Positions 22,088 through 47,236 of a stretch of DNA of 52,287 nucleotides are shown piece after piece. Location: the IMG/VR virus record IMGVR_UViG_3300035156_000067, positions 1 through 52,287 of that record. One strand, written 5' to 3'. Position 1 is the stretch's first letter. Each line of letters starts with the position of its first letter. Both the position numbers and the translations under genes were made by a program. The notes below the pieces were generated by a model that was given only the letters and a program-made list of their open reading frames with translations, was not told the DNA's origin and searched no databases. This DNA comes from a virus. Lineage: Duplodnaviria; Caudoviricetes.

Positions 22088-23129
22088 GTTCCCGCTTTGG
22101 CCTGTAGAACCGCGCCCAGAGGCGAGTCGCGTTCTTGATCGCAACAGCTAGGCGATCGACATAGACGCCTTGCGCCCCCCTCTCGTCGGCTATTGGGTGA
22201 CCGCTGCAATAAGCCGTTTCCTCAGCCGTCCAGCCCATCCCCCGGCGGCTGGTGATGAAGGTTCCGCGTAGGTCGTTGAAGGTCCGGTCCTCAACCCCGG
22301 CCTTGGCCGTCATAAGCTGGAAGTCGGAGCGGAGCCCGTTGCCGTTCGGGTTGAAGGGCCGCTCGCGGGGCGTCGAGAGTATGGTCGTGCATACCCGAGG
22401 CGCATCAGCCAACATCGCAGCGAGGGTCGGAGAGATTGGGATCGCGACCGGGACGCCGGTTTTCAGGCGCTTGGACACGATGACGTTGGACTGGATGGCG
22501 GACCACGGCAGGACGAGAAGGTCTTCCTGCGAAAGGCCAGTCTCGAGCGCGAGGATGACGGCCCGCTGGATCGCCGGCGATGACGCGGCGAGGATGGCCT
22601 TCACCATTTCAGGCGTCCACACCTTCTCAGTCCGATCAGCCTTGTAAACATCCTCGATGCCGCTGGCCCGGTTGTGCGTCACCAGCCCGCGCTTGCCGCA
22701 CCACGTCAGCATGGCGCCCAGAACCGAGATTGCGTAGTCCGCCTGCCGGGGCGAGGTCTCGGCCATCTTGTCCCGCCACTCGTAAAGGACGCCCGCGATC
22801 TTCGGCGACTGGATGGCGGCGATGGAGAGCTTGGCGAACCGGGCATGGATCTTGTCGAGTTGCCGGTGATAGTCGCGCTGGGTCAGGGGGCGCAGCTTTT
22901 TGAACTCGGGCGAGGACTTGTAGCGCCAGATCAGGTGCGAGACCTTCCCCTCCTCCGGGGCCCGCCTCAGGACCTCGGCAAGGTTGAAGTGGAAGTCGGG
23001 ACCGCCTTCGCGGCCAAGCGCCTCCATGCCCTCCCCACGGCCATAGTAGCCGTATCGAATGACCTCCCCGCTCGCGAGGGTCTTCTTCTGAAACCAGACG
23101 CCTTTAGGCAGCGTCGTTCTGGATTTCAC
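22029..23129 (-). CDS. int: Tyrosine integrase
   Basis: KTG, FNDLRGT and SGH motifs with a downstream Tyr; adjacent to attP. GTG at 23129 is the likely start. Confidence 0.88.
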   Translation of the reverse strand: MKSRTTLPKGVWFQKKTLASGEVIRYGYYGRGEGMEALGREGGPDFHFNLAEVLRRAPEEGKVSHLIWRYKSSPEFKKLRPLTQRDYHRQLDKIHARFAKLSIAAIQSPKIAGVLYEWRDKMAETSPRQADYAISVLGAMLTWCGKRGLVTHNRASGIEDVYKADRTEKVWTPEMVKAILAASSPAIQRAVILALETGLSQEDLLVLPWSAIQSNVIVSKRLKTGVPVAIPISPTLAAMLADAPRVCTTILSTPRERPFNPNGNGLRSDFQLMTAKAGVEDRTFNDLRGTFITSRRGMGWTAEETAYCSGHPIADERGAQGVYVDRLAVAIKNATRLWARFYRPKRERSLQTPMQTGDQGVRQKST

Positions 23130-23310
23130 AGCGTAGTGCCTCGATCTCAGCATCAATGCTGTCTGGCGTATCATTGGCGGCGGTCGGGCGCACGGTGACG
23201 ATGGGCTTGCCTTCGCCGTCGAACCTAATGTCGTAGCTCTCTACGCCAGCCAGTCGCATGGCGGATGCAACGCGGGCGAGCTCTACCTTGCGAAACCGGG
23301 CCGCGCTCAT
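23104..23310 (-). CDS. Putative excisionase/recombination directionality factor
   Basis: Small gene overlapping the integrase start; ARF...EL.R...A pattern. Confidence 0.55.
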   Translation of the reverse strand: MSAARFRKVELARVASAMRLAGVESYDIRFDGEGKPIVTVRPTAANDTPDSIDAEIEALRCEIQNDAA

Positions 23311-23513
23311 CTCGTGTCCTTGGTGGCGAGATTTGGTTTCACTCCGCCTGACGGTTTATCCGGTTCTTCGTACCAGCCCGCCCTTACGGCCTGCTTTGAC
23401 AGGTTTCCGCTCGCATCGAATACGTCCACGCCATTGATGTGAAACGACCCATTTCGCATTCCCATGCAATCGGACAGGCGCTGAGATCCGTCCTTACTTA
23501 CGAAGGTCGTCAT
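23307..23513 (-). CDS. Hypothetical protein
   Basis: GAAGGAG RBS; ATGA overlap with the next gene. Confidence 0.6.
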   Translation of the reverse strand: MTTFVSKDGSQRLSDCMGMRNGSFHINGVDVFDASGNLSKQAVRAGWYEEPDKPSGGVKPNLATKDTR

Positions 23514-25081: not shown

Positions 25082-25266
25082 GCAGGGGTCTCTGGGTTGG
25101 TGCGGAGAGACGCGAAGTAGGCGTATTCGTCACGGACACAGCGCGCCACAGATCGAGAGTTCCAGTACCAGCCTTCGCCGTATACGTTCCGGTTCAGAGC
25201 GTCTTTGACTTGCCAGCCGCCGTCATCCACGACGCGAAAAGGCGCCACGAAAACTATCTCGTTCAC
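25078..25266 (-). CDS. Hypothetical protein
   Basis: GTGA/ATGA overlaps; GAGG RBS. Confidence 0.6.
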   Translation of the reverse strand: MNEIVFVAPFRVVDDGGWQVKDALNRNVYGEGWYWNSRSVARCVRDEYAYFASLRTNPETPA

Positions 25267-25703
25267 TTCGTCACCTCTTCATTCGGGAGAGGGGGAAGGG
25301 CTGCGAACTTGAGCGGGCGAACAAGGCGGATGCGGGGGCCGCCATCAGGGCGCTCGTGCGTCAGGCGATTATGCCAGATGCCCATGAACTGTTGTTCGAA
25401 AGCCCAAGCGTCAGCGTCTCCGGAAGAGGTGGCTAGGGCGGCTACGACCACCTTGTGGATGTCCGTCTTCTTGGCTGCCGAGAGAGACAGGAAGCCCTCG
25501 ATGCCCGCGACGCAGCGATCGTATGCGTCCTTTTTGACAGCCTCCCCGCCCCCTTCCGGTGCGGATTGAACGGGGGATGCTGCGTAAAGGGGTGTTCCGA
25601 TTGGCACGTCAGCGGACCTGAAAGCCGCCATCGTGAAGCCGTCCGTTCCGGGCATTGAGCCCGCGACGCCGACCGGCACGACTTTATAGGGGTGGGCGGT
25701 CAT
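25263..25703 (-). CDS. Hypothetical protein
   Basis: ATG at 25703 overlaps the upstream stop. Confidence 0.6.
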   Translation of the reverse strand: MTAHPYKVVPVGVAGSMPGTDGFTMAAFRSADVPIGTPLYAASPVQSAPEGGGEAVKKDAYDRCVAGIEGFLSLSAAKKTDIHKVVVAALATSSGDADAWAFEQQFMGIWHNRLTHERPDGGPRIRLVRPLKFAALPPLPNEEVTK

Positions 25704-26592: not shown

Positions 26593-26870
26593 GCCTTCAC
26601 CTGTTGAGCTTGGTTTACTTCGCCAAGAGGCTCCGTACCGCAGGTGCTTGGGGATGCGGCGGGACCAATGATCTTGATCGTGCAGATGGTCTCGCCCTCA
26701 GATACGATGTCGGCCTGCATGCCGATGCCGATGTGATCCATGACGGCCTTGAGAGCGTCGCTCGTTAAGTCGTAGCGAGGTTCCTTGAACCCCATCCCAT
26801 CCTTGGTTGGTCGTCCGGCGAAGATGCGACCCGAAAGCGCGGCGGTCGCGAGGCGGATGGGATTGCTCAT
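26589..26870 (-). CDS. Hypothetical phage protein
   Basis: LSGRIFAG...DLTSDAL.AV motif; coupled overlaps. Confidence 0.65.
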   Translation of the reverse strand: MSNPIRLATAALSGRIFAGRPTKDGMGFKEPRYDLTSDALKAVMDHIGIGMQADIVSEGETICTIKIIGPAASPSTCGTEPLGEVNQAQQVKA

Positions 26871-27778
26871 TTTGAGACCTCTTCATTCGGGAGTTCCCAC
26901 CCGGCAGTCGCCGCAGCGAGGTTTTCTACGTGGCTCTCCCGCGTCCCGGTCCAGAGCGCTGGAACAGCCTTGACCTCAGGACCAATAGCGTTTGCTCGAT
27001 CCGACCATTCGACGGCAGTTTCGTAGTTCGGAGCCGGATAGATGTCGTCCGGGCCGCGAGCATGCATCATCCAGAGCAGGTAACGAGCGGTATCCCATTG
27101 ACCGGCGGTCTCGTCCGCCTGCTCGGTGGGTACGAAGCCCGTCTCGGGCGTAGTGAAACCCTTATCCTTCTCAGTAGGGAGTGAAGAGCTTGGCTTACTC
27201 GCCGAAGACGGCTCCGTACCCGCCGTCGATGGGGATGCAGCGCCACTCAGACGGAAGGCGATGATGCAGCAAGGGCCGCTCGGCACGTTCCACGATGCGG
27301 CGTCGGACGGCCTGTTCATCCACGACCGCTTCCAATCATCGACATAGTCCACCATCAGCCCCGGAACCGGGTTCTCCCCTCCGCTCCACGGGATCCAGCC
27401 TTCTGCGTCAGGACGACCGATGAAGGCGAATGACTTCGGCGATGAGTTTCCGAACGACGTGCCGTTCAGGTAATCGCCCGACCAGCCGTCGCCGTGGATG
27501 AAACGAAGCCATGCGACCCGCCCGTCTCGATGGCGGATAAGGTCACCCGCCTCGCCAACCGGCGGCATGGCCTGACCGGAAGCATCAGCCACAGTCTCGG
27601 TGGGGATTTCCAAGTCGCTCAGCGTCGGTCCGGGGTCCTGACCCATCGCTATCAGCTTGGCGGCATCATCTTGCAGGGCCGCGTCCATGACGGGATCGGT
27701 GCTGTAGATGCCGGTCCCGGTGGGGATTTCCTGCAAGGAAATAGAACCAAAATCTTCCATGGGGTGGTCGGTGTTCAT
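26867..27778 (-). CDS. Mosaic protein reading through a back-to-back repeat junction
   Basis: ATG at 27778 overlaps the upstream stop; GWIPWSGGENPV...IIAFR module fused to a GPDD...AP module. Confidence 0.65.
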   Translation of the reverse strand: MNTDHPMEDFGSISLQEIPTGTGIYSTDPVMDAALQDDAAKLIAMGQDPGPTLSDLEIPTETVADASGQAMPPVGEAGDLIRHRDGRVAWLRFIHGDGWSGDYLNGTSFGNSSPKSFAFIGRPDAEGWIPWSGGENPVPGLMVDYVDDWKRSWMNRPSDAASWNVPSGPCCIIAFRLSGAASPSTAGTEPSSASKPSSSLPTEKDKGFTTPETGFVPTEQADETAGQWDTARYLLWMMHARGPDDIYPAPNYETAVEWSDRANAIGPEVKAVPALWTGTRESHVENLAAATAGWELPNEEVSK

Positions 27779-28140: not shown

Positions 28141-28311
28141 TCAGAAAAGCTCCATCTGTTGAGAGTTGGCGCGATCAGCCTCAAGGGCTCGGCGCTCTGC
28201 GTTGGCGGCCCAGGTATCGAGGACCGAGGCGAAGGCACGATCGCAGCGCATGTCCGACTGCCGGCGCACATCGGCCTCAGTGCGGAGAACAGCGGCGGTG
28301 TGGCGGCTCAT
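28141..28311 (-). CDS. 56-aa protein ending QMELF (not in the ORF track)
   Basis: ATGA-coupled to the MTase; resembles 43283-43465. Confidence 0.65.
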   Translation of the reverse strand: MSRHTAAVLRTEADVRRQSDMRCDRAFASVLDTWAANAERRALEADRANSQQMELF

Positions 28312-29321
28312 GCGGCGAGCCTTTCGGCTGGGGCCGCGTCCATGTAGGCACCGATCAGGTTCGTGAACGCCTCGACGTCGATCGCGTCACCGAACCCTGA
28401 CAGGAGGCCCATATTTTTGGGATCCGCATCAGCGAGCGGGCTAAGTCCGGGTTCAACCGGGCGCCAGAGTCCATCACGGCCGAGGAGCCAGTCAGGGCCG
28501 CCGCCATATTCAGGGTCTGGTTCGGCCCGAATGGATCGCCACCCTGCCCCCGATGACCATCCGTCACAGTCGGAGTAGGCCAGACGGACAGAAGGGCCTG
28601 ATCGCCCAGATAGAGCGGCACCGTGCTCTGGTTGGCGTTGCGCTTCCGGAAGTCCGCGCACTTCGCCATAGTCTCGTCCGAGCGCGGGCGATCCGTCACG
28701 GCTGGGGTCGCCCAACCGGATGCCCGTGCCGCCATATCCAAGGTCACCTGAGCTTTCGACCCGTCCGGTTTTCGGCCAGTGACCGTCGTGCCATGGGGCA
28801 CGGTCTGACCACCACTCGGCGTTGTCGGCGTCGGCCACGAAGCCAAAGCGCTGGCGTCGGTGCGCGCCTCCGAAGCCCGCAGCCGGTATATCAGGCGTCC
28901 CGATGGCGTAACGCTCGCCCTCCAGGTCACCTGAAACAAGATCGAGCCACTCGATCGCGTTCGCAGATTGCTCACCAAAGATGCAGACAGGCCGGCGCTG
29001 GCGGATGAGCCGAAACCATTCCGGCCATAGGTGGCGCGGGTCGTCAAATCCGAGGCCGAGCCCGGCTTCCGAGAAGGGGCCGCAGGGGCAAGAGCCTGTC
29101 CAAACAGGTCGGTCATCTGGCCATCCGGCACGACGCAGGCAGAGGCTCCAGAGACCGATCCCGGCGAAGAAATGATGCTGGTCGAAACCGGAGAGGTCGT
29201 CGGGTTGGACTTCCTCGATCGAGCGCTCGTCAACGATGCCATGAGCGATCTCGCCCTCCTCTATGAGATTGCGAAGCCACGCGGCCTTCTTGCGGTCGAA
29301 CTCGTTGTAATAGGCGGCCAC
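28308..29321 (-). CDS. DNA (cytosine-5) methyltransferase, catalytic polypeptide
   Basis: FFAGIG (I), GSCPCGPFS (IV), GEQ (VI), HRRQR (VIII) and GFGDAI (X) motifs. Confidence 0.88.
   Translation of the reverse strand: MAAYYNEFDRKKAAWLRNLIEEGEIAHGIVDERSIEEVQPDDLSGFDQHHFFAGIGLWSLCLRRAGWPDDRPVWTGSCPCGPFSEAGLGLGFDDPRHLWPEWFRLIRQRRPVCIFGEQSANAIEWLDLVSGDLEGERYAIGTPDIPAAGFGGAHRRQRFGFVADADNAEWWSDRAPWHDGHWPKTGRVESSGDLGYGGTGIRLGDPSRDGSPALGRDYGEVRGLPEAQRQPEHGAALSGRSGPSVRLAYSDCDGWSSGAGWRSIRAEPDPEYGGGPDWLLGRDGLWRPVEPGLSPLADADPKNMGLLSGFGDAIDVEAFTNLIGAYMDAAPAERLAA
28355..29116 (-). CDS. Nested alternative-frame MTase subunit (WxTP repeats plus motif IX-like segment)
   Basis: Open frame of up to 295 codons wholly inside the MTase gene; three W[PA]TP modules; LNPDLARSLMRIP..W. 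Start is uncertain (ATG 29116 assumed). Confidence 0.7.
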   Translation of the reverse strand: MTDLFGQALAPAAPSRKPGSASDLTTRATYGRNGFGSSASAGLSASLVSNLRTRSSGSILFQVTWRASVTPSGRLIYRLRASEARTDASALASWPTPTTPSGGQTVPHGTTVTGRKPDGSKAQVTLDMAARASGWATPAVTDRPRSDETMAKCADFRKRNANQSTVPLYLGDQALLSVWPTPTVTDGHRGQGGDPFGPNQTLNMAAALTGSSAVMDSGARLNPDLARSLMRIPKIWASCQGSVTRSTSRRSRT

Positions 29322-29355: not shown

Positions 29356-29535
29356 TCATCCTTCTGCTCCGGGATTTTGATGGTCTATTTCGCGTTGCGA
29401 AATCCCCACCGAGAGCGTGTCGGCGTTATCGCTTACTGGACGCATCACCTCGGGAAGCCGGTCTAGGCCGACGAGATGGATGCCGATGGCCACGGCCTGA
29501 AGCTCAGCGGCAAGGCGGGCGTTGGAGACGGTCAT
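29356..29535 (-). CDS. 59-aa hypothetical protein (not in the ORF track)
   Basis: ATGA-coupled to the upstream MTase. Confidence 0.5.
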   Translation of the reverse strand: MTVSNARLAAELQAVAIGIHLVGLDRLPEVMRPVSDNADTLSVGISQREIDHQNPGAEG

Positions 29536-30422
29536 GCGGCCACGCTGACGTTGGCGAACATGCCCTGCTCATCGCTGATGCGACGGCGAGCGATCTCGGC
29601 ATATTCGGGGTTCAGCTCGATCAGGACGGCACTGCGTCCGAGACGATCAGCGACAAGTCCGGTCGTGCCAGCGCCGCCAAATGGGTCAAGTATCGTGTCG
29701 CCCTCGCTACTCGAGCAGACGATGCAGCGCCTTGCTATTTCGGGCGTCATTGGCGCGGGATGCTCAGTCGCGCCCGATGGCGAGACCCTCCAAACACTTG
29801 AGCTAAACCAGTCCTCGCCCGGATTGCGGACGCGGCTTGGGCCATTAGGGGTCAGCAGAAAAATGTAAGAATGTGAGACGGACGGGCGGTCCTGCCGAGG
29901 CGGTTCGGTGGCCGTGCCTTTATCCCAGATGATCGTCTTGCGGAGATACCACCCATCGGCCCGGAGGCGGTCGGCGACCTGAAACGGAGTCAGCGAGAGG
30001 TCGCGAACCTTGTACCCCTTCGGCGGCGACCGCCATCCCGTGCGCTGTTGCAGGCTGGTCAGTTTATGGCGCTTGGCGGCCCTGCTCCCGCCGCCGCCGT
30101 TTCCGCCGGCGGCATAGGTATCGCCCAGCTCGATCCACAGCGATCCGTCTTGCGCAAGCGTCCGCCGTACCTCTCGCATGACTTCAACCAGAGAGTCGGC
30201 GAAGTCTGCCGGACACCCCTCCGTGCCAAGCTGTCCGTCCGCTTCGTAGTCACGTTGCCGCCAGAACGGTGGGCTGGTTACACAGGCCGTCACGCTTCCC
30301 GTGGCGACGTCAGCGAGCCGGTCCCGACAGTTGCCCGTGAGGAGTGACAGTGACGTCTGCTCGGTAGGTACTCGACGGTCTTCCGGCGAGTGAAACCCAA
30401 CCTTTCCATCAGGATATGTCAT
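29532..30422 (-). CDS. DNA amino-methyltransferase (N4-C/N6-A, beta class)
   Basis: TSPPF catalytic motif precedes HPA and LDPFGGAGTT SAM-binding motif. Confidence 0.9.
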   Translation of the reverse strand: MTYPDGKVGFHSPEDRRVPTEQTSLSLLTGNCRDRLADVATGSVTACVTSPPFWRQRDYEADGQLGTEGCPADFADSLVEVMREVRRTLAQDGSLWIELGDTYAAGGNGGGGSRAAKRHKLTSLQQRTGWRSPPKGYKVRDLSLTPFQVADRLRADGWYLRKTIIWDKGTATEPPRQDRPSVSHSYIFLLTPNGPSRVRNPGEDWFSSSVWRVSPSGATEHPAPMTPEIARRCIVCSSSEGDTILDPFGGAGTTGLVADRLGRSAVLIELNPEYAEIARRRISDEQGMFANVSVAA

Positions 30423-33163: not shown

Positions 33164-33855
33164 ATCGTGATCTCCTGTTCGTACCGGCGCTCGGTCGGGA
33201 TCAGGCGGACGCCCGATTTGCAGACGCGCTGGAACTCGGCGTGCATCTGGTTGATCTTGATTTCGGCGTCGGTCGCGATGGACACGATCGCCTCTTGGAT
33301 GGTCGGGTCGGGGTGGACGCGAACCGTCGCCATCGGCAGCCCGGCGCTGTAGCTGATGAAGTCCAGCCACTTCCGCTCGCTGACCAGAAGGCCGGTCTGG
33401 CACTGGATCAGGAACTCGGCAGGCACCTTGTCTTCGGCTACCGACTTGAGGATCGTCTCGACCTGGAACTTGTGCTTGCGGGACTTGCACTCGATCAGCC
33501 CGTCGTCGCCGACCAGTCCATCCGGCGAATAGCCGATGGTGAAGCCCCAGCGGTCGTTCGTGATGAAGCCGCAATCCTGAACCGGCTCGTAGTGCTCGGC
33601 ATAGGCAATGCGGGCGTCGATCTCGTCTTCGTGGCCGCGAAGCATATCGAAGCCGGTGTAGGTCTCCTCGACGTAGCCAGCGATGCGCTGCGACACGAGC
33701 GTGAAGAGGTGGGCGCGCTGGTTGTCGTTCGCGGCCGCCTTCATCGTGGCGGGCGTGACCAGCAAGCGCATCTCGCTCGCCGTGAGGACGCCCCGGCGGA
33801 TTTCGAGCCAGTCGCCGGAGCCCTGAGCGAGGTCGTGGTGATATTTGACGGCCAT
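33160..33855 (-). CDS. YqaJ/lambda-exonuclease family nuclease
   Basis: QGS..WL..R.G.LTAS, SPDGLV and IECK motifs. Confidence 0.92.
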   Translation of the reverse strand: MAVKYHHDLAQGSGDWLEIRRGVLTASEMRLLVTPATMKAAANDNQRAHLFTLVSQRIAGYVEETYTGFDMLRGHEDEIDARIAYAEHYEPVQDCGFITNDRWGFTIGYSPDGLVGDDGLIECKSRKHKFQVETILKSVAEDKVPAEFLIQCQTGLLVSERKWLDFISYSAGLPMATVRVHPDPTIQEAIVSIATDAEIKINQMHAEFQRVCKSGVRLIPTERRYEQEITI

Positions 33856-35305: not shown

Positions 35306-35463
35306 GCCTCGTCCCCGTCTTCGACAACCGCGCCCTCAGGCAGGGTGACATCGACGATCTCAATGCCTTCGGCCTCAAGCATCCCGATAACGATGGCCTC
35401 AATCTCGCTGATGGGCTTCATCGTGAGTTCGACCTTGAAGGTGACCGGGCTTTTGCGGGGCAT
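35302..35463 (-). CDS. Hypothetical protein
   Basis: ATG at 35463, TGATG-coupled. Confidence 0.5.
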   Translation of the reverse strand: MPRKSPVTFKVELTMKPISEIEAIVIGMLEAEGIEIVDVTLPEGAVVEDGDEA

Positions 35464-37366: not shown

Positions 37367-37896
37367 CCGCCCGTCCCACTCTTCACGCCAGACCATGTAG
37401 GCGCCGGCGCGATCTTGGTGCTGGGTTTAGCTAAGACCGCCTCAAGCGCGCCGGTGTCCACCTCGTTCGGATTGAATTCGCGAAGGAAACCAGGCCGGGT
37501 TTGAAGCGGCGGAGCTAGACGGCGCAGCCACTTGTCGGACGGCGGCCCGGGTTGTTCCTCGAGAAGCTCGATGGTGGCCGGAGGAACCTCGACCCGAGCG
37601 GCCAGCTCGTCGACGGTGAGAAAGCGAAACTCGCGCCACGCACGGATGTTGTTCCGCTCACCTTCTTCCGGATCCGGACCGCCGAAAATGTCCTCGACCG
37701 TCAGCCTATAGGCAGCGGCGATCTTGGCCTCATTCACGCCGGTTAGGCTGGCGGTCCGCTTACCATTGGTCTCGACCATGTAGGAGCGGATGGTGTTGTA
37801 CTGGACACCAGAATGCTCGGCGACTTGGTTCATGTTTAAGCCGCTCGCCTTCATCCAGGCGTCGAAATTCTCGCGGCGAAGGTCCTGCAGGGTCAT
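37363..37896 (-). CDS. CI-like repressor with two XRE HTH domains
   Basis: LNMNQVAEHSGVQYNTI and IRAWRE...LTVDELAARV...TI..LE; divergent from cro. Confidence 0.82.
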   Translation of the reverse strand: MTLQDLRRENFDAWMKASGLNMNQVAEHSGVQYNTIRSYMVETNGKRTASLTGVNEAKIAAAYRLTVEDIFGGPDPEEGERNNIRAWREFRFLTVDELAARVEVPPATIELLEEQPGPPSDKWLRRLAPPLQTRPGFLREFNPNEVDTGALEAVLAKPSTKIAPAPTWSGVKSGTGG

Positions 37897-37990: not shown

Positions 37991-38209
37991 ATGACCGATC
38001 TCGCCAGCATTATCCGCGCAATCGAAACCGCTGCCGAGGCTGAGGGGCTTCCCTCGCTGTCGAAGCGAAGTGGTGTTCCATACACCACCTTGCGCGATTG
38101 GCAGAAGGACGGCTGGCGTCCCAAGGCGGTCCAGACCTTTGAGCGAGTTGCGCGAGCTGCAGCCTCCCTCCCCGCAAACGACACCGCCGCCCAAGCCGAG
38201 GCGGCCTGA
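37991..38209 (+). CDS. cro: Cro-like HTH protein
   Basis: LSKRSGVPYTTLRDW HTH; divergent from the repressor. Confidence 0.8.
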   Translation: MTDLASIIRAIETAAEAEGLPSLSKRSGVPYTTLRDWQKDGWRPKAVQTFERVARAAASLPANDTAAQAEAA

Positions 38210-38243: not shown

Positions 38244-38516
38244 ATGTCGATCTGTGACCGGGTGATGGAACTGTCGGATGGTCTCGCGGACCTGCTGCTG
38301 GCTGCGGACGCCGCCACCGACGAGGGCGACGCGCTGAGGTTTCTCCGCAAGGCCGTCGACGCCGCCGAGGCCGTCAAGTTCGGCAACAAGTGCGCACGGA
38401 CAATCCTCACGATGGCAGCGGCCGACGTCCGCAAACAGCGCCTCGCGCCTGACCTTCCCGTTCCGGCCAATGATCATCTGCCTGACTCCTCTCCACATGA
38501 CCCCATCGTCGCCTGA
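38244..38516 (+). CDS. Hypothetical protein
   Basis: GAGG RBS before ATG 38244. Confidence 0.6.
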   Translation: MSICDRVMELSDGLADLLLAADAATDEGDALRFLRKAVDAAEAVKFGNKCARTILTMAAADVRKQRLAPDLPVPANDHLPDSSPHDPIVA

Positions 38517-39387: not shown

Positions 39388-39978
39388 ATGGCCAAGACGC
39401 TTACAGCAGATGCCGCACCGCCCGCCGGGTCGTCGGCTTCCATCCCGAACGCCAGTGAAGAGGCCAACTTCCTCTCTCACATCGGCAAGCTTCGTATTCA
39501 GGACAACAAGGTCGCCATCGCGAAGGCCGCTCTGGATGCCGAACGTGCCGTGCTGAACGACCTGTTCGGCGAGGCCAAGCGCGACAAGTTCAGCCGCAAG
39601 GAACTCCGCGCGATCCTCGACGACGGCAAGGCCATCCGTCGCGATCTGGTCGCCGAGGAAGAACGCCGCGCCAAGCTCCGCATCTGGGCGGGACTGCCAG
39701 CCGGCGCCCAACCTGATCTGTTCGGTCTGGGCGACACCGCCCGGGACGCGGTCGACGCCGACGCTCATGGCTACGCGATGGGCCGTCGTGGTGAGGACGA
39801 GTTTGCGCCGGACTGGATCGGGCCGAACAATCTTCCGGACTTCTCGGGCGGCTGGCGCCGGGCGCAGGCTGAACTGCTCGCTCAGGTCGGCACGGCTGAC
39901 GCCCCAAAGGCGAAAGGCCCCAAGCTGGTCGCCGACAATGACGCCAAGGCCGACGAACCGAAGACGGACGCGGCATAG
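39388..39978 (+). CDS. GapR/DUF2312-like protein with Rmf-like C-terminal motif
   Basis: LNDLFGEAKRDKFSRKELRAIL; QPDLF; GY..G..G...P.W...F..GW. Confidence 0.5.
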   Translation: MAKTLTADAAPPAGSSASIPNASEEANFLSHIGKLRIQDNKVAIAKAALDAERAVLNDLFGEAKRDKFSRKELRAILDDGKAIRRDLVAEEERRAKLRIWAGLPAGAQPDLFGLGDTARDAVDADAHGYAMGRRGEDEFAPDWIGPNNLPDFSGGWRRAQAELLAQVGTADAPKAKGPKLVADNDAKADEPKTDAA

Positions 39979-40515
39979 ATGTACCTCGCGCTCGACCTCG
40001 CAACCGAGACCGGCTTCTGCGTCGGGGCTGCCGACACCGGCGAAGTCCCGACGCTGGGTCACGTCCGCATGCCGTCCACTGGCCCAGATGTGGGTCAGTT
40101 CCTGGCTGCGTGGCAGGACTGGCTGGACGCAAAGGTCTGCGAGGTCGAGCCGACCCTCATCATTTTCGAGGCCCCGATCCTTCCGTCTGAGACCCAGATG
40201 TCGACGACCCGGAAGCTTCAGGGCCTCGCAGGGGTCACTGAAATGGTCTGCCACCGCGCCGGTATCGAAGTCGCGGAGCTGACGACCAGCACCGTGAAGA
40301 AGGGCCTCACCGGCAACGGCAGGGCCAGCAAGTCGGACATGGTCCGCGCCTGCCGCGCCTACGGCTTCAACCCCCACACCTACATCAAGAAGGGCGAAGA
40401 ATCGTCCGACGAGGCTGACGCCTTTGGCATCTGGCTCTGCGCCTTACGCCTTCGCCACCCGACCCATGCCGGACGCTGGGACCCCATGAATTTCACACCG
40501 AGGACCGCCGCATGA
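39979..40515 (+). CDS. RuvC-like Holliday junction resolvase
   Basis: LALDLA..TG, FEAP, VKK.LTGNGRASK..M and DEADA motifs. Confidence 0.88.
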   Translation: MYLALDLATETGFCVGAADTGEVPTLGHVRMPSTGPDVGQFLAAWQDWLDAKVCEVEPTLIIFEAPILPSETQMSTTRKLQGLAGVTEMVCHRAGIEVAELTTSTVKKGLTGNGRASKSDMVRACRAYGFNPHTYIKKGEESSDEADAFGIWLCALRLRHPTHAGRWDPMNFTPRTAA

Positions 40516-41306
40516 GGTACTTACAAACCCGAGACGAACAGCGCGAGTTCTGTGCCGAATGGCGCGCTGGCGTTCCTATCACCGAGCTGACCGCCCGATA
40601 CGGTATCAGCCGCAGCGCCATGAATGCGCATCGCCGGAAGCTGAACCTTCCAGAGCGCGGCGAAGTGGCTGGATGGACCCCTGCCCGCCTTGCCCTCGCC
40701 CAGCGCCTCTATCAAGTCGAAGGCCGTTCCGCCTCTCAGGTCGCGGCTGTTCTGGGTCTCGGATGCACCCGCAACGCCGTCATCGGCAAGGCGCACCGGA
40801 TGGGATGGGCTAAGGCTCGCAATCAGCAGCCGTCCGACCCGTCCGTGCTGACGGTTCGCGCCCATAGGGTCGTCCGGTCGCGCGTGAAACCTCCAAAGCC
40901 CGGCCCCGGCGCCAAGACCCCCGGCACGTTCAGCCTCATGTCTCAGGCGACATCAACGGCAACCGAATCCGTTCGCAAGGAACGCGCCGCCGAGGGTCAG
41001 AAGGCCATCGCCCGGGCTAGCGTTTCGGATGTCCTGAGCCCTAACGCCGTGCCGTTCCTCGACGCCCAACACGGCTGCAAGTGGCCGATTGGCGAGGGGA
41101 TGGCGATGATGTCGTGCTGCAACAAGATCGCGCGCGGCGTTTATTGCGAAGGTCACGCAGCCGTCGCGTTCTCAGCTTTCCAGCCTGCCGAACGTGACCG
41201 CGCCGACCGACGGACCTCAAGCTTCACCCGCCATGACCGTATCGCGACCCCGCGCAAACAGGCGGCCACTGACGGCCTGTGGGACGAGATCAGGAACGCG
41301 GCGTGA
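40512..41306 (+). CDS. gcrA: GcrA-family transcriptional regulator
   Basis: WT..R......EG.SASQVA..LG..TRNAVIGKAHRMG and CKWPIGE...CC......YCEGH; extra N-terminal HTH. Confidence 0.88.
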   Translation: MRYLQTRDEQREFCAEWRAGVPITELTARYGISRSAMNAHRRKLNLPERGEVAGWTPARLALAQRLYQVEGRSASQVAAVLGLGCTRNAVIGKAHRMGWAKARNQQPSDPSVLTVRAHRVVRSRVKPPKPGPGAKTPGTFSLMSQATSTATESVRKERAAEGQKAIARASVSDVLSPNAVPFLDAQHGCKWPIGEGMAMMSCCNKIARGVYCEGHAAVAFSAFQPAERDRADRRTSSFTRHDRIATPRKQAATDGLWDEIRNAA

Positions 41307-42754
41307 TGGCAGGGCACCGCACCAGCGTCCGGCGCTTCGCTTCCGCCGAGATCGACACCTCCCGCTCCACTGGCTTGAAAGCCGATCACCCCGCCCTGTC
41401 TGAAGGCCGGACTATCTTTCCCACGACCGTCAGCAGCAGCAAGGCCAGCCCCAGGTTCCTCGTCTCGGGCCATAACAACCCGAAGCTCGGCAAGGCTGTC
41501 CTGAAGGGGCCTCGCACCGGCTGGCCGATCTATCAGCTCTCGCTCGAGGAGCGCGCCACCTGTCCCCGGACCTGCGCTCAATGGGCGGACTGCTACGGCA
41601 ACGCCATGCCGTTCGCCCGGCGCCATACCCCGGATGTCGACTTCGAGCGGTTCCTTGTCGCCGAGATCATTACCCTGTGCCGCGCGCACCCTGAGGGCCT
41701 CTTGGTCCGACTGCATGCCCTCGGCGACTTCTACTCTGTCGAGTACGTCTACATCTGGGCCCGGCTCATCACCGACTTTCCTCAGCTTCACGTCTTCGGC
41801 TACACGGCCCGCAAGGTCGATGATGCTGACCCGGATAGCGCCCGCATTGCCCGCGCCATCTACCTGCTGACCGAGTCGGCATGGGATCGGTTCTCGATCC
41901 GCACGTCGGGAGTGTCGACGGCCCGCTCGCGCTCTGTCGTGGTCGACGAAAACCCGATGCTGGCCGACACGATCGTCTGCCCTGCTCAGACCTCCGACAC
42001 CGAGGCCTGCGCTTCCTGCGGGCTGTGCTGGGCATCAGCGGCGCGGGACAAGACTATCGCCTTCCTGAGGCACGGCATGAAGACGCGAGGCCCGAAGGCC
42101 GCGAATGATGTCGTGGCTGTCCCTGCCGCCAAGATCGTCGCTGTCGCCGCACCCGCACCTAAGGCGCCGCCCGCCACAAAAGCCCCGGCGACCGACCGCC
42201 CCCTGTCGCCGGGATGCGCGAAGGCGTTCGCCTACCTCACTGACGCCGCCGATGCGGACGGCAAGGTCTCCGCAACATGGGCCGAGATTTGCAAGGGTTC
42301 GGGCGTTCCGTCGGGATCTATGGGCTACACGATGGAGACCCTCGTCAAGCGGGGCGTGATCTCAATCGCCATCAAGGGCAACGGGCGTGGTGACCCGGTC
42401 ACCTATCAGATCGGAAAGACCAGCGCGGCTCCGGTGACAGCAGCTCCGGCCGCTACCAGGCCCGCCTACGTCTCTCCGATCAAGCTGACGACCAAGGTCA
42501 CGCCCCGGATGGTGACGCGTGGACCCGCTGCCCCATCGGCTGACGACCTGTCCGACATCCCGGCCAACGATGCGAAACCTCGCGGTCTGGTGGCCCGTAA
42601 GGCTGGCCAATGCGCCTACCCGACCAACTCACCCGCCATCGGTCGGGGCGAGGACACCACGTTCTGCTGCGAGCCGTCCGTCGGGCGCCTCTCGTACTGC
42701 AAAGAACACACCGCCCTGATGTTCAGCCGTCCGGCCAAGAAGGTGGCGGCATGA
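41306..42754 (+). CDS. Gp88-like Cys-rich protein fused to wHTH and GcrA-type C-terminal domain
   Basis: N.KLGK, TCP..C....CY, RLH..GDF and CPAQ...CASCGLCW; C-terminal CAYP...FCC......YCKEH. Confidence 0.7.
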   Translation: MAGHRTSVRRFASAEIDTSRSTGLKADHPALSEGRTIFPTTVSSSKASPRFLVSGHNNPKLGKAVLKGPRTGWPIYQLSLEERATCPRTCAQWADCYGNAMPFARRHTPDVDFERFLVAEIITLCRAHPEGLLVRLHALGDFYSVEYVYIWARLITDFPQLHVFGYTARKVDDADPDSARIARAIYLLTESAWDRFSIRTSGVSTARSRSVVVDENPMLADTIVCPAQTSDTEACASCGLCWASAARDKTIAFLRHGMKTRGPKAANDVVAVPAAKIVAVAAPAPKAPPATKAPATDRPLSPGCAKAFAYLTDAADADGKVSATWAEICKGSGVPSGSMGYTMETLVKRGVISIAIKGNGRGDPVTYQIGKTSAAPVTAAPAATRPAYVSPIKLTTKVTPRMVTRGPAAPSADDLSDIPANDAKPRGLVARKAGQCAYPTNSPAIGRGEDTTFCCEPSVGRLSYCKEHTALMFSRPAKKVAA

Positions 42755-42939
42755 ACCGCGCTGACCTGATCCACGCGCGCCAGAAGGCCGACCTCGTCAT
42801 GACCGAGACCGTGAAGATCGAAGGCTGCCTCCGCGCAATCAAGGACGTCGCCGGTTTTCAGGGAGCCGAGACCGCCGCCCGCGTCGCACTTCAACGAGTC
42901 TGCCGCGCCAGCAACGACAACGACGGATGGGTGGCATGA
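42751..42939 (+). CDS. Hypothetical protein
   Basis: ATGA overlaps. Confidence 0.55.
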   Translation: MNRADLIHARQKADLVMTETVKIEGCLRAIKDVAGFQGAETAARVALQRVCRASNDNDGWVA

Positions 42940-43286
42940 CCAACTCCAAAGAGAACTACATGGTCGACCGCATCGATCGGAAGCGCGAGGAGCCCGCCGC
43001 TAAGGCCCTCCGCCTGCGCCGGAACATGTATCTGCTGATGCAGGCCCGCCGGTCCGTCACCTCCCTTCTCGCCGATCTGACCAGTCCCGACGAGCAAGGC
43101 GCGATCCTGGGTCACCTGATCGACATCGCCGCCGAGCAACGCCACCCGCTCATTGGCAGGGTCGAGACGGCAACGGCACTCAACAGCGTCGCCGCCGACG
43201 TCTGCGCCGTGTTCAGGCTCGACCGGGGCGTGAAGTTCGCCCGTGCCGAGCAGTTGTTCGCGGCGAACGATGGGGATCAGACGTGA
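42936..43286 (+). CDS. Hypothetical protein
   Basis: ATGA/GTGA overlaps. Confidence 0.6.
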   Translation: MTNSKENYMVDRIDRKREEPAAKALRLRRNMYLLMQARRSVTSLLADLTSPDEQGAILGHLIDIAAEQRHPLIGRVETATALNSVAADVCAVFRLDRGVKFARAEQLFAANDGDQT

Positions 43287-43465
43287 ATCGGAAGGATCTG
43301 GTCGCGCTAGAACTCCACTACGCCGGGATGCTGCGCCGTGAGGCCAAGTCTCGCGCCAAGCGATACCCCAAGATCGCCGAGCAGCTGACCAAATGGGCGG
43401 ACAACGCCGTTGCACGGGCTGAGACAGTTCGCTGCGGGCCGCTGTTTTCGGGAGCGGCCGAATGA
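43283..43465 (+). CDS. Small helical protein, likely paralog of 28141-28311
   Basis: H.A..LR.EA..R...L..WA.NA..RA pattern. Confidence 0.65.
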   Translation: MNRKDLVALELHYAGMLRREAKSRAKRYPKIAEQLTKWADNAVARAETVRCGPLFSGAAE

Positions 43466-44892
43466 TGGATCCCCGCGACTTCGAACAGGCCGCCGACCCG
43501 CTGACGGCCAACATGGAAGCCGAGACGGCGCTGCTGGGGATCCTGCTCTATGAGCCGACCGCGCACCGTGACGTGCAGGACCGGGTGACGGCTGAGGACT
43601 TCTCCGAGCCGTTCTTCCAACGCCTGTATGCCGCCATCGTCGAGAGTATCGCCGCCCACGGGCTGGCCGATACCGCCCTGCTGAGCGGTCGCCTGTCGTC
43701 CGATCCCGCATGGCAGGACTTTGGCGGCGCGAGCGGCCTCGGCGATATGATTGAGAAGGCCGGTAATCCGAAGCTGGCCGCCGACTACGCCCTGCAGATC
43801 GCTGATGCCGCACTGCGTCGCCGTTTGATCCGCATGGGGCAGGAGGCTATCGTCAGGGCTCGTTCCGACGAGCTGAGCGCCTTCGACGCCGTGGCGGCCA
43901 CCCGAACAGCCCTAGAGGATGCGGAGCGCGGCTCGGCGCCGGAAGACGCCCTGTTCGTCAATGCCCATGACGCAGCCCTGTCCCGTATGGACCGGCTAGA
44001 GATGGAAGTCGCGACCGGGAAGCCGAAGGGCATTCAGACGGGCATGTCCTGCTTCGACAAGCGGCTCGGCGGGTTCATGCCGGGTTCGGTCCTGATCCTT
44101 GCCGGTCGGCCAGGTATGGGAAAGACGGCGCTTCTCGGCAACGCCCTCTACGGCGCCGCAATCCGTAACCCGAACAAGCTGTTCGCGGGCTTCTCGCTCG
44201 AGATGGACACCGACCAGTTGAATGACCGCGCCCTATCGCGCCTCACCGAGAGCGAGTCGCAGCCGGTTTCATTCTCCGACATCGCCAAGGTGCTACCGCT
44301 CACGTCATTCGACATGCAGGCACTGCACCGGGCGAAGGGCTTCATACCCAAAAACCTGTGGCTACGAGACCGGGCGGGCGTGTCCGTGGAGGACGTGGCT
44401 CGCGCTGTCTGGGCCATGAAGCGCCGAGGGGACTTGGGCGCCATTGGCATCGACTATCTGCAGCTTATGCGCCGCCCTGCCCTCGCGGGCCGGAATGAGG
44501 CCAGCGCCATCGCCGAGATGACCGGCGCCCTGAAGAACCTCGCCCGCGAAGCCAAGATCACGATCCTGCTGCTGAGCCAGCTCAACCGATCGGTCGAGAG
44601 CCGGGACGATAAGCGGCCCATGCTGAGCGACCTGCGGGAGTCGGGCTCCATTGAGCAGGATGCCGACGCCGTCCTCTTCCCCTTCCGCGAGGTCTACTAC
44701 CTCCAGAAGGCCGAACCCAAGCCTGACCTCACCGGAATGAACGGCCCTCACTTCGAGTGGGAGATGCAGGTCGCGAACCTGCGCCGGCACATGGACGTCA
44801 TCATCGCCAAGAACCGCCATGGCTCCGAGGGCTCCGAGCCCATGGACTACCAGGCCGAAATCGACCTCATCATGGATCGGAGGGCCGCGTGA
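43462..44892 (+). CDS. dnaB: DnaB-like replicative helicase
   Basis: AGRPGMGKT, FSLEM, IDYLQL, LSQLNR, SDLRESGSIEQDAD and AKNRHG motifs. Confidence 0.96.
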   Translation: MMDPRDFEQAADPLTANMEAETALLGILLYEPTAHRDVQDRVTAEDFSEPFFQRLYAAIVESIAAHGLADTALLSGRLSSDPAWQDFGGASGLGDMIEKAGNPKLAADYALQIADAALRRRLIRMGQEAIVRARSDELSAFDAVAATRTALEDAERGSAPEDALFVNAHDAALSRMDRLEMEVATGKPKGIQTGMSCFDKRLGGFMPGSVLILAGRPGMGKTALLGNALYGAAIRNPNKLFAGFSLEMDTDQLNDRALSRLTESESQPVSFSDIAKVLPLTSFDMQALHRAKGFIPKNLWLRDRAGVSVEDVARAVWAMKRRGDLGAIGIDYLQLMRRPALAGRNEASAIAEMTGALKNLAREAKITILLLSQLNRSVESRDDKRPMLSDLRESGSIEQDADAVLFPFREVYYLQKAEPKPDLTGMNGPHFEWEMQVANLRRHMDVIIAKNRHGSEGSEPMDYQAEIDLIMDRRAA

Positions 44893-45818
44893 AGAAGGGC
44901 CAGAACTTTTACCGCCGTGATCCGTCCAAGGCGCTGTCAGGCATGATCGGTCTGAGCCTAGAGGAACGCGGCGTCTACAACACCGTCCTCGACCTGCTGT
45001 ACATGACATGGCGTCCCGTCGAAGACGACCGGCGCTTCATCGCCAACTGGTGCGGCTGCGCTGTCCAGAAACTGAACCCGGTCATCGTTCGCCTGATCGA
45101 GAAAGGGCGCCTCATCACCTTCGTCGAGGGCGGACGGACGTACCTGTCAGACGAGGCCTTCGAAGCCGAGCGCACGACCGTGAAAGGCGCTGCGACGACC
45201 CGCTCCGGAAGGGCTCAGGTCGAGGAGAAGTCAGAAGAAGTCGAGGAGAAGTCGGCAGGTGTCAGCCTAAACCCCGCAGTTCTCGATACCGAAACCGCCG
45301 AAAATCAATCGGTTACGCCCCTAGAGAAGAGTAGAGTAGAGAAGAATATACCCCCTAACCCCCAAGGGGGAAAACAGCGACGCCCCGAAACACCCATCCC
45401 CGATGGCTGCCCTAGCGCCGAGATCGTTGCCGCAATGCAGGCTGAGGCCCGGCAGGCTGGGGCAAACATCGATCTGACCCATGAGGGCCGACAGTTCCAC
45501 GACTGGTGGCTGGCCAAGGACGGGAGAAACCGGGATTGGGACGCCTGCTGGCGAACCTGGGCTCGCCGAGCGATCAAGGCCGCCCCCAAAACCGCTGCCG
45601 CAAACCTCACAAAGCCCTGTTCCGCTGGACAGGACGAGGTCTGGCGGCGACGCATTCGGGAGTTCAAGGCCAACCGCTTCTGGCCCGTCGACGATCTCGG
45701 TCCGCGCCCCGGCCACCCCGGCTGCAAGGCCCCCGTCCACGTCCTCAGCGACCTTGGCTTCAAGCCCGAACACGCCAACGACACCCCGCCCCTTCTCGCC
45801 AAGGATCAAGCCGCATGA
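44889..45818 (+). CDS. Replication initiator (DUF1376/YdaU N-terminus)
   Basis: LSLEERGVY..LLDL.Y N-terminus; F.DWW...DW.ACWRTW C-terminal domain; GTGA overlap. Confidence 0.8.
   Translation: MKKGQNFYRRDPSKALSGMIGLSLEERGVYNTVLDLLYMTWRPVEDDRRFIANWCGCAVQKLNPVIVRLIEKGRLITFVEGGRTYLSDEAFEAERTTVKGAATTRSGRAQVEEKSEEVEEKSAGVSLNPAVLDTETAENQSVTPLEKSRVEKNIPPNPQGGKQRRPETPIPDGCPSAEIVAAMQAEARQAGANIDLTHEGRQFHDWWLAKDGRNRDWDACWRTWARRAIKAAPKTAAANLTKPCSAGQDEVWRRRIREFKANRFWPVDDLGPRPGHPGCKAPVHVLSDLGFKPEHANDTPPLLAKDQAA
45219..45372. other. Putative replication origin within the initiator gene
   Basis: GTCGAGGAGAAGTC twice, 21 bp apart, followed by a purine/AT-rich tract. Confidence 0.5.
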
Positions 45819-47236
45819 CCGCGATCATTCCCCGTTCGACAGTCGTCGAGTTGGAAGCGCACCGCGCTCGTGCGCTCGAGCTATACGCCACCGCATGGGA
45901 GGCGCTGGAAGCGGCAGGCCGGGCCCATGGTCAGGCCACCGTGAAGGGCGGAACAGGCGGAATGATCTTCTCGACCGGCCGCTATGGCGACGCGAAGCAC
46001 TACAGCGCCCTCGCCGACCGCGAGCCGTTCCTCGATGAGGCCCGCAAGCAGATCGATCGCGGCATGTGGGATCACCTGATCTTGTCGACGGGCATTGAGC
46101 GACTGATGGACAAGACCGAGCGGGACGCCTTCCGCGATCAGCTATCTAAGGATCCGCCACCCGCCACCGCCGACAACGTCTTGGCCACCTTCGAGCGGCT
46201 GGCTGGGGAAGCGGGCATGATCTTCGCCCGAGGTTTGGCGCTGGCGTTCAGCAAGCTCGACCGCCGGTTCCGCTCCCACGATGGGTTCAAGATCGGTGCC
46301 CGGGTCGTCTTCAACAGCGGGTTCTCCGATGGTCGCTGGAACTACTATTCGAAGCGGGACGAGCATCTGCGTGACGTCGAACGGTGCTTCTACGTCCTCG
46401 ACGGCAAGGTGCAGCCGGACCGCTCAGCGGGCATCGTCGGCACTGTGGACCTCGCCCGCCCCGCGCTCTGGGGGCCCCAGGCCTTTGAAGCTGAGGACGA
46501 ATACTTTCGGGTGAGGGTGTTCAAGAACGGCAACGTCCACGTCTGGTTCAAGCGCGACGATCTGGTGGAGAAGGTCAACCTCGTCCTCGCCGACCACTAC
46601 GGCGCCGTCTTGGGCGCAGGCTCCGATGCTGCCGAACGAACGCACGAACCGACACGCGAAATGGCGAAGAACTTCGGGTTCTTCGAGACGCCGCCCGCCG
46701 TCGTGGCCCGGGTGATCGAGGAGGCGTATCTGCAGTCGGGCATGACCGTGCTTGAGCCAAGCGCCGGAAAGGGCGCGCTCGCGATCCCCGCTGGCCGGGT
46801 GACGGGACATGTGGTCTGCGTCGAAGTTCAGCCTGATCTCTGCCTCGCACATTGCGGCATCCTCAGCCCCGACGTCCTGTCGTCCATTCATGCGGACTTC
46901 CTCGACATGACGCCCGAACGGCTGGGCTGGTTTGACCGGATCGTCATGAATCCTCCGTTCGACCGAGGGCGCGACGTCGACCATGTCACCCACGCCATGC
47001 GGTTCTTGAAGCCCGGCGGACGCCTCGTGTCGGTGATGTCGTCAGGCACCGAGTTTCGGGAAGACCGGAAGACGCAGGACTTCCGCGCCACGGTCGAGCG
47101 GTTTCGCGGCAGCTTCCGCGACCTGCCGCCGCTGTCGTTCGCCGAGAGCGGAACGAACGTGAACACCGTGATGGTGACAATCAACGCCCCACTCGCCGCC
47201 GCCAACGATCAGACCAGCCAAAAGGAAGCCGCATGA
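45815..47236 (+). CDS. DUF4942-domain N6-adenine methyltransferase
   Basis: FFETP, VLEPSAGKG and MNPPF motifs; RVFKNGN.H..F; ATG at 45815. Confidence 0.85.
   Translation: MTAIIPRSTVVELEAHRARALELYATAWEALEAAGRAHGQATVKGGTGGMIFSTGRYGDAKHYSALADREPFLDEARKQIDRGMWDHLILSTGIERLMDKTERDAFRDQLSKDPPPATADNVLATFERLAGEAGMIFARGLALAFSKLDRRFRSHDGFKIGARVVFNSGFSDGRWNYYSKRDEHLRDVERCFYVLDGKVQPDRSAGIVGTVDLARPALWGPQAFEAEDEYFRVRVFKNGNVHVWFKRDDLVEKVNLVLADHYGAVLGAGSDAAERTHEPTREMAKNFGFFETPPAVVARVIEEAYLQSGMTVLEPSAGKGALAIPAGRVTGHVVCVEVQPDLCLAHCGILSPDVLSSIHADFLDMTPERLGWFDRIVMNPPFDRGRDVDHVTHAMRFLKPGGRLVSVMSSGTEFREDRKTQDFRATVERFRGSFRDLPPLSFAESGTNVNTVMVTINAPLAAANDQTSQKEAA

Follow-up and report, generated by a model that had tools for sequence, protein, structure and literature searches.

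Gene-encoded tails resembling the host tmRNA tag on early proteins of a temperate Brevundimonas phage, candidate SspB/ClpXP degrons

Introduction

Encoded C-terminal degrons resembling the ssrA tag of transfer-messenger RNA (tmRNA) are known from phages. In mycobacteriophage BPs and its relatives, encoded ssrA-like C-terminal tags destabilise phage proteins and set the frequency of lysogeny (PMC4557955, PMC9262239). The N-terminal AAND[N/E] segment of the ssrA tag is the site bound by the adaptor SspB in E. coli (PMC9963277, PMC10659297), and deletion of sspB in Caulobacter slows the decay of a protein carrying the Caulobacter ssrA tag (PMC9393093). Engineered DAS+4 tags keep the SspB segment and weaken the ClpX end, which makes degradation adaptor-dependent (PMC10659297), and RseA 1-108, which ends in VAA, is a non-ssrA substrate delivered by SspB in E. 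coli (PMC8138137, Table 1). A phage-encoded SspB has also been reported (PMC5587285), which is a different thing from a mimic of the tag. Here, we describe IMG/VR virus record IMGVR_UViG_3300035156_000067, a complete temperate phage contig from Brevundimonas of 52,287 bp and 65% G+C (the window, by which we mean this whole stretch), in which many unrelated early proteins share a C-terminal tail that combines an Ala-Asn-Asp (AND) motif with a free Ala-Ala (AA) end.

The tail has the consensus [A/P]-A-N-D-[N/D]-x4-5-[E/D/K/G]-A-A-COOH and is mostly 11 residues long. We propose, at a probability of roughly 60%, that these tails are gene-encoded copies of the host ssrA/tmRNA tag that act as SspB/ClpXP degrons on early proteins. 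Our full-text literature search found no description of adaptor-site-containing tag mimics across a phage proteome.

Tail enrichment on early proteins

Genes were called with a self-trained codon-usage caller, giving 83 genes (84 minus one duplicate from a 127-bp terminal overlap), and all gene starts are our own calls. Virion genes occupy the + strand from 1 to 21.3 kb. The integrase-position gene and a leftward early operon follow, extending up to 36.3 kb, a rightward operon for early and replication functions then spans 37991 to about 48.7 kb, and the terminase comes after it. An earlier note, made from the letters of this DNA, had proposed that early proteins across the genome end in mimics of the ssrA tag, and the C-termini that it quoted are all present at the genes named (Table 1).

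AND occurs 14 times in the 83 proteins against 4.2 expected from within-protein shuffles, none of which reached 14 (0/2000), and each of the five permuted orders of these residues is found 3-8 times. Within the last 25 residues the motif is found 6 times against 0.5 expected (tail-only shuffles, 0/20000), and 18 of 83 proteins end in Ala-Ala against 1.9-2.5 expected (0/20000 shuffles). The motif stands in the contexts PAND, AAND, HAND and AAAND, and the pattern AND-x6-AA-TGA matches twice in the 52-kb window. Chance or composition as a source of AND and AA is ruled out by the shuffles and the permuted-order controls. The proposed concentration on early proteins is borne out by both elements: early and virion proteins hold 13 and 1 ANDs on 8036 and 7962 residues, respectively (binomial p=0.001), and AA ends are found on 14/48 proteins of the early modules and 4/34 of the virion modules (p=0.05).

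The codons for AND differ from site to site, and GCN-AAY-GAY within genes is found 14 times in frame, once out of frame and 7 times in antisense. Because the string is enriched in the coding frame only and its codons vary, a DNA-level motif is ruled out and the signal lies at the level of protein.

The host tag and its adaptor

The GcrA domains encoded by the phage point to an alpha-proteobacterial host, and a DnaB search recovered related prophages in six Brevundimonas genomes (69-85% identity) along with 34 IMG/VR contigs. A close annotated relative was not found: when the early region was compared by megablast with 50,697 phage records, the only match was 48 bp long; protein searches for relatives gave one sewage phage and distant rhizobial and Paracoccus phages.

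All five Brevundimonas genomes examined contain a two-piece tmRNA by Rfam RF01849 (210-234 bits), and ARAGORN detected no tmRNA at these five host loci. We read the host tag by translating the Rfam matches. The tag frame is ANDNFAGEVRLAA-stop in four of the five genomes and ANDNFAGEVALAA-stop in the fifth, so that the earlier assignment to Caulobacter and its tag has to be replaced by Brevundimonas and ANDNFAGEV(R/A)LAA. The SspB adaptor (PF04386) that the proposal needs is present in all five genomes, where it adjoins the tmRNA gene at a distance of about 180 bp, in every case no more than about 200 bp, and it is an orthologue of the Caulobacter SspB, matching the solved structures 2QAS and 2QAZ (E=2e-57). 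Searches of the phage window itself found no tmRNA or tRNA, and the phage encodes no SspB.

The host background was taken from 400 kb of B. diminuta chromosome (8,487 N masked; 378 genes by the same caller). AND is found there 19 times against 21.9 expected and in the last 25 residues of 0/378 proteins, and AA ends are found on 26/378 (6.9%). The window exceeds the host both in C-terminal AND (Fisher p=2.9e-5) and in AA ends (p=1.5e-4), which, with the early and virion proteins and the composition controls above, confirms the enrichment over background that had been anticipated. Since host proteins end in AA at 6.9%, terminal AA by itself is a weak marker.

Conservation of the tails in related phages

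We pooled 1,107 genes called in 40 related loci with the 83 of the window, and the 1190 proteins fell into 348 families, 88 of them with at least three members. In 31 of the 348 families (15 of the 88), most distinct tails have AND among their last 25 residues, and AND-x4-13-AA fits 16 families (9 of the 88). The two elements go together: 19 of the 31 AND families end in AA compared to 44 of the 317 others (odds ratio 9.8, p=1.7e-8), and 10 of these 19 count 11 residues from the A of AND to the C-terminus. Most common is the 11-residue form [A/P]AND[N/D]-x5-AA, in which AND and AA are fixed while linker and codons vary. Examples are VANDDGDDTEHQQDAA in family 6 (21/21 distinct tails), TANDNVEIGEAA in family 29, ANDNTPNSEIAA in the DUF3799 nuclease family and [E/S/P]ANDDAPASEAA in three other small regulator-position families. 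In the MAFFT alignment of family 36, seven of the 10 invariant columns are AANDD and the terminal AA. The motif N is written AAC in 74% and AAT in 26% (82/18 overall) and the motif D is written GAC in 74% and GAT in 26% (72/28 overall); this closeness to overall codon usage argues for selection on the protein.

Pattern searches independent of gene calls agree with this picture. In five whole Brevundimonas genomes AND-x6-AA-TGA gave 7 matches, all within prophage stretches (reversed control 0), and across 201 genomes of the host's family it gave 10 matches in 9 genomes (control 0). In IMG/VR, AND-x5-EAA-TGA was found in 104 stretches with 112 matches, 107 of which close open reading frames (ORFs) of at least 50 residues, with 72 distinct tails. 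As controls, the reversed pattern was found in 1 stretch, ADN in 28 (12 of them in such ORFs) and DNA in 7 (3 of them in such ORFs). Of the 80 IMG/VR stretches listed, 50 are contigs outside the DnaB search results. A further 40 IMG/VR loci (G+C at least 0.58), each ascertained through having one such tail, contain 67 C-terminal ANDs in 566 gene calls, a single locus often carrying several that differ from one another. In 82 distinct IMG/VR tails, AND is preceded by A in 40 and by P in 15 (A or P in 55/82) and followed by N in 25 and by D in 24 (N or D in 49/82), which matches the AANDN of the tag.

Twelve of the IMG/VR tail matches lie in loci below 55% G+C. ORFs ending AANDDSNDAEAA and AANDNEDQPEAA are found in loci L072, L088 and L111 (44-47% G+C) and L101, L104, L128 and L133 (51-52% G+C), and since these viral contigs have a much lower G+C content, the tail is probably not confined to phages of Caulobacteraceae. 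The ORF with the AANDNEDQPEAA tail at 52% G+C had no match in phage or E. coli genome collections.

Proposed mechanism

Taken together, the observations support a mimic that is under selection as a peptide and in which the tails copy the two functional ends of the Brevundimonas tag, (A)ANDNFAGEV(R/A)LAA, keeping them at a preferred spacing while the middle drifts. In the mechanism that we propose, the SspB dimer of the host would hold the AAND[N/D] segment and ClpX would take in the free Ala-Ala end, so that tagged proteins are constantly fed to ClpXP and kept short-lived. This set would include the Cro-position regulator, the replication initiator, methyltransferases, recombination proteins and small proteins.

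Of the 19 family representatives that combine AND with AA, nine have E at the antepenultimate position, four D, two G, two I, one K and one R. In an E. coli screen, terminal Ala-Ala proved critical and yet insufficient, with an upstream Leu favouring degradation and short or small polar antepenultimate residues disfavouring it (PMC10862746). From this screen and the E, D, G, K or R in 17/19 representatives, we infer that the ClpX site, preceded usually by an acidic or polar residue and not by Leu, is probably weak and that turnover would depend on the adaptor.

The AlphaFold2 model of the Cro-position protein, built on a shallow alignment of 4 sequences, has helices within residues 4-58 and a predicted local distance difference test score (pLDDT) below 50 at residues 63-72, and the tail is predicted to be unstructured and exposed. 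A complex model of Brevundimonas SspB residues 1-125 with this 72-residue protein scored 0.41, and one unrelated control scored 0.70, so that the model speaks neither for nor against binding.

The repressor-like and integrase-position proteins have no tag, as the earlier note had stated. The former ends in SGTGG, and its family ends in TGT-x-G in all 17 homologues found and never in AA; the latter ends in RQKST. The C-terminal halves of the repressor-like family are otherwise very divergent, and yet they always end [R/S/K][T/S]GT-x-G. In the proposed mechanism these two untagged proteins would be stable, leaky lytic functions would be tightly silenced in lysogens, and the levels of lysis and lysogeny proteins would follow the spare capacity of SspB/ClpXP, in competition with genuinely tmRNA-tagged proteins.

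Evidence against a degron role and alternative explanations

A number of observations weigh against the degron reading, and a first group of them concerns the DNA at gene junctions. In the host, AA ends are found on 10/54 genes with -4 or -1 overlaps compared to 16/324 for the others. When the host rates for each coupling class are applied to the window, they predict 8.0 AA ends versus the 18 seen (p=0.0015), and the excess is individually significant only in the class with 0..12-nt spacing. Translational coupling thus accounts for part of the terminal AA (about 8 of 18) and for none of the AND, which is what the earlier note had cautioned, that ATGA coupling can yield AA and does not explain AND. 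In addition, families 35, 36, 38 and 72 share identical tail DNA together with the same downstream start. Since the tail DNA is byte-identical in four upstream families, recombination at the junction spreads the tail, and part of its distribution reflects such spread rather than independent selection. The related loci are also kin, which inflates raw counts; counting by family lessens this effect and does not remove it.

Carried to its full extent, this line of argument makes the tails a by-product of nucleotide constraints, where Shine-Dalgarno sequences and overlapping starts (GAGG..., GCATGA) dictate the codons, mosaic recombination spreads the junction DNA and the peptide has no function. 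The GAG-GCN at the end of the tail indeed supplies a GAGG ribosome-binding site 8-9 nt before the next start following the stop, 7 of the 18 window AA ends fall within -4 overlaps, six of the ATGA type and one of the GTGA type, the last codon is GCA at 11 of the ATGA overlaps, and a second, unrelated junction, LPNEEV[T/S]K, is repeated within the window. The AND, however, stands at least 8 codons upstream, beyond the reach of coupling, uses synonymous codons at background frequencies, is found at 0/378 host C-termini, remains invariant where the linker changes and is statistically linked to AA. AA ends also occur where no downstream gene is coupled, at 36432-36683 and at the Cro-position gene, whose next start is 34 nt away, and IMG/VR alone yields 72 distinct tail sequences. 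Nucleotide-level constraints contribute a minor share, and we consider it very improbable that they explain the tails as a whole.

The second group of observations concerns the likeness to the tag itself. The antepenultimate residue is never Leu, unlike the host tag, and judged by the E. coli screen such ends may be poor ClpX degrons (PMC10862746). An aromatic residue like that of the host tag (ANDNF) is missing from the tails, and the canonical tail falls two residues short of the host tag. Of the 31 AND families, twelve have acidic, VA or W-I-G/W-V-A ends in place of AA, and some AND motifs are unlike a simple degron, such as those of the 42936 protein, with its acidic end, and the 47233 protein, with its N-terminal tandem. 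The AND families without AA may be adaptor binders that escape degradation or a sign of another partner. Of the earlier claim that lytic and replication proteins undergo adaptor-tuned ClpXP turnover, mimicry and selection are upheld, and SspB binding and ClpXP decay, that is, the mechanism beyond likeness to the tag, are inferred from sequence.

Another partner is the basis of an alternative that we rate as unlikely, in which the AND tail serves as a short linear motif recognised by a different shared partner (a phage protein, or another host factor such as ClpA, a further ClpXP adaptor, or a replication or recombination hub) and the likeness to the tag is partial or coincidental. The absence of the Phe and Leu of the host tag would fit this, as would the 42936 family, where all 23 distinct tails have AND and none ends in AA, the acidic end taking its place, the 42751 family with ANDN-x2-W-I-G, and the tandem ANDN near the N-terminus of the 47233 family. 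The flanks of AND, A or P and N or D, nevertheless reproduce the AANDN of the tag, and AND is tied to a free Ala-Ala end at a preferred distance, which is the two-part layout of the tag. Furthermore, the unrelated functions of the tagged proteins suit a general fate signal better than a functional complex, and no candidate partner emerged.

The tails might instead bind SspB/ClpXP mainly as decoys, abundant early proteins saturating the adaptor or protease and thereby blocking the turnover of the host's tmRNA-tagged or regulatory proteins, or protecting other phage proteins. Many proteins carry the motif at once, the acidic-ended AND-only proteins resemble non-degradable binders, a change of the terminal Ala to Asp prevents direct ClpX recognition (PMC10862746), and a tandem ANDN could engage a dimeric adaptor. 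We nonetheless hold a mainly decoy role to be improbable, given that the 19 AND families with Ala-Ala keep an end that a pure decoy would not need, and that the dosage of the tagged regulators and enzymes plausibly matters in its own right.

With the degron reading as the base, a bolder extrapolation, which we put forward as speculation of doubtful standing, would join these elements. A portable, adaptor-specific degron cassette would serve as a genome-wide timing device in temperate phages of Brevundimonas, and probably of other proteobacteria, with most early proteins wired to SspB/ClpXP. The AND-only 42936 and 47233 proteins would be non-degradable competitors for SspB, and their accumulation, or a rising load of tmRNA-tagged proteins, would stabilise the early proteome together, coupling ribosome-stalling stress to the choice between lysis and lysogeny.

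Genes of the window

The genes discussed above are listed in Table 1. Pfam and PHROGs support the identification of DnaB, RuvC, GcrA, Gp88/DUF7227+GcrA, the DUF1376 primosomal/initiator protein, the DUF4942 methyltransferase, YqaJ, and the C5 and N6/N4 DNA methyltransferases. The labels Cro, Xis-like, GapR-like and late regulator have no support in Pfam or PHROGs and are names of position only; the integrase label of the gene at 22029-23129 comes from the earlier note, and no Pfam family was found for it.

Table 1. Coordinates, termini and AND motifs of tagged, AND-containing and untagged genes in the window.
Gene	Coordinates	Strand	C-terminus or motif	Position of tail or motif	Remarks
Cro-position gene	37991-38209	+	...LPANDTAAQAEAA; tail ANDTAAQAEAA + stop	38174..38209	canonical 11 residues
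DUF4942/methyltransferase gene	45815-47236	+	...AAANDQTSQKEAA; tail ANDQTSQKEAA + stop	47201..47236	canonical 11 residues
DUF1376 replication-initiator gene	44889-45818	+	...HANDTPPLLAKDQAA; tail ANDTPPLLAKDQAA	45774..45818	extended tail
Small gene beside integrase	23104-23310	-	AANDTPD...QNDAA; tail ANDTPDSIDAEIEALRCEIQNDAA	23104..23178	long tail
Gene 39388	39388-39978	+	ADNDAKADEPKTDAA; tail DNDAKADEPKTDAA	39934..39978	window copy DND, relatives AND
Gene 38244	38244-38516	+	PANDHLP...IVA; tail ANDHLPDSSPHDPIVA	38466..38516	VA-ending class
Gene 42936	42936-43286	+	tail ANDGDQT	43263..43286	AND without terminal AA
Gene 42751	42751-42939	+	ASNDNDGWVA; tail SNDNDGWVA	42910..42939	
Gene 47233	47233-48039	+	GANDN...IANDN, ANDNASLIANDN	47296..47331	N-terminal tandem, residues 22-33
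YqaJ-like exonuclease gene	33160-33855	-	AAANDN	33724..33732	internal AND
Two genes with AND-like motifs	35463-35771; 35773-36135	-			motifs N-terminal or internal
Gp88/DUF7227+GcrA protein	41306-42754	+	AAND, PAND, end ...KKVAA		overlaps next gene
DnaB-like helicase	43462..44892	+	...DRRAA		AA only
RuvC; GcrA-domain protein	39979-40515; 40512-41306	+	AA ends		ATGA/TGATG overlaps with next gene
C5 methyltransferase; N6/N4 methyltransferase	28308-29321; 29532-30422	-	end GCC GCA TGA (AA)		ATGA overlaps
HTH (helix-turn-helix) repressor-like gene	37363-37896	-	...SGTGG		no tag; negative case
Integrase-position gene	22029..23129	-	...RQKST		no tag; negative case

Three distinct homologues of the Cro-position protein end in IPANDDAPASEAA. 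In the initiator family, AND is kept in 17/18 distinct tails and the AA end likewise in 17/18, and the tail has the form [A/P]AND-x1-2-KPDLF-x3-AA (17/18). Most initiator tails carry a conserved KPDLF between AND and AA, in place of which the window copy has PPLLAK; we take KPDLF to resemble sliding-clamp-binding motifs. Seven of eight distinct homologue tails of gene 39388 read [A/P]AND-x8-11-AA. Family 3, which in the relatives is the class similar to gene 38244, has AAND in 15/17 distinct tails and ends [T/D]VA, and the relatives of gene 42751 read [S/T]ANDN-x2-W-[I/V]-[A/G]. The small gene beside the integrase has no family assignment in Pfam or PHROGs and no homologue in the fetched loci, and the only homologue found for YqaJ reads AANE at the AND site of the window. 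DnaB homologues end mostly in RRAA or RSAA, and also in TERS, RSFA and EVAQ. The adjacent genes at 40512-41306 and 41306-42754 each carry a GcrA domain, in the second fused to Gp88/DUF7227, and both end in AA.

The 42936 family (family 4/45) is a small, all-helical protein whose gene lies immediately upstream of the DnaB cluster and is present in almost every related locus; its invariant AND sits 7-8 residues from an acidic C-terminus. The MAFFT alignment of 20 sequences, which reach down to 23% identity, has only 12 invariant columns among its 123, and A110, N111 and D112 are among these. The last four residues of the model have pLDDT below 50, and a Foldseek search of the model against the PDB gave no match at E <=0.001. 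The 47233 protein is encoded downstream of the methyltransferase and has a very basic N-terminus preceding its tandem, IGANDN-x3-4-[A/V/T]NDN, a form that recurs in 21 of the 23 distinct homologue N-termini listed (44-65% identity); the exceptions are one IGANDNHTNDN and one IGAANDD..IANDN. This protein has no Pfam or PHROGs family and a weak protein-atlas lead to DUF6456. The AND-only proteins in general had no match in Pfam or PHROGs, and their protein-atlas leads were weak, to unnamed clusters with a score of at most 0.92.

Two other features of the window stand apart from the tails. The genes at 25263-25703(-) and 26867-27778(-) encode otherwise different proteins that both end LPNEEV[T/S]K, with 17 bases (CTCCCGAATGAAGAGGT) in common immediately ahead of the point where the next gene starts in overlap, and this junction looks like a repeated sequence containing a Shine-Dalgarno site. 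At the ends of the window, positions 1-127 equal 52161-52287, an exact 127-bp direct repeat that duplicates the 3' end of the last gene. It could have arisen when a circular or permuted genome was assembled with overlapping ends, or else it is a genuine terminal repeat; IMG/VR classes the contig as having direct terminal repeats.

Comparison with known systems and significance

If the degron reading is right, the phage relies on one host adaptor to determine how long a large part of its early proteome lasts, by means of a modular peptide that can be moved between genes by recombination. The tails would then be a natural counterpart of engineered SspB-dependent degrons and a source of ready-made, tunable degrons for alpha-proteobacteria. 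They would add a layer of control over lysis and lysogeny that is tied to the trans-translation load and to ClpXP capacity, and would explain the tail shared by so many small early phage proteins. The signature [A/P]AND[N/D]-x5-AA-stop flags the early regions of prophages.

The nearest comparison is the host tmRNA tag with SspB and ClpXP. The tails share its two-part layout, in which an AAND[N/E] start is the SspB site in E. coli and a free Ala-Ala is the ClpX site, and the host encodes the adaptor. Unlike the host tag, they are written in frame within ORFs that end at ordinary stops and are not added by trans-translation, and they are mostly two residues shorter, without Phe or Leu and with acidic or polar residues before AA. 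Set beside the ssrA-like C-motif 1, the tails thus have the free Ala-Ala and lack the non-polar Leu or Val before it, and an unstructured, exposed tail is predicted for the two proteins modelled, those of the Cro position and of gene 42936.

Phages of the BPs type also carry phage-encoded, natively translated ssrA-like C-terminal tags. As described for them, the -LAA-type tag is on the repressor and the integrase and comes off the repressor after integration (PMC4557955, PMC9262239). In the present phage, by contrast, repressor and integrase are untagged, so that the arrangement behind integration-dependent immunity is absent, whereas dozens of early-protein families are tagged and the adaptor-binding AAND is copied as well.

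With respect to DAS+4 degrons, an [E/D]AA in place of LAA would follow, on paper, the same logic of a kept SspB segment and a weakened ClpX end. DAS+4 tags are man-made and have been tried in E. coli and mycobacteria, whereas the phage tails are natural and keep the terminal Ala-Ala. RseA 1-108, lambda O and MuA are likewise native ClpXP substrates, including phage replication and transposition proteins (PMC8138137). Their signals, in contrast, are individual ones, with an adaptor part that is not ssrA-like or is N-terminal, and they do not share a modular tail. Encoded ssrA-like degrons are already known, and the candidate degrons described here would be new in extending across an early proteome and in including the adaptor-binding segment.

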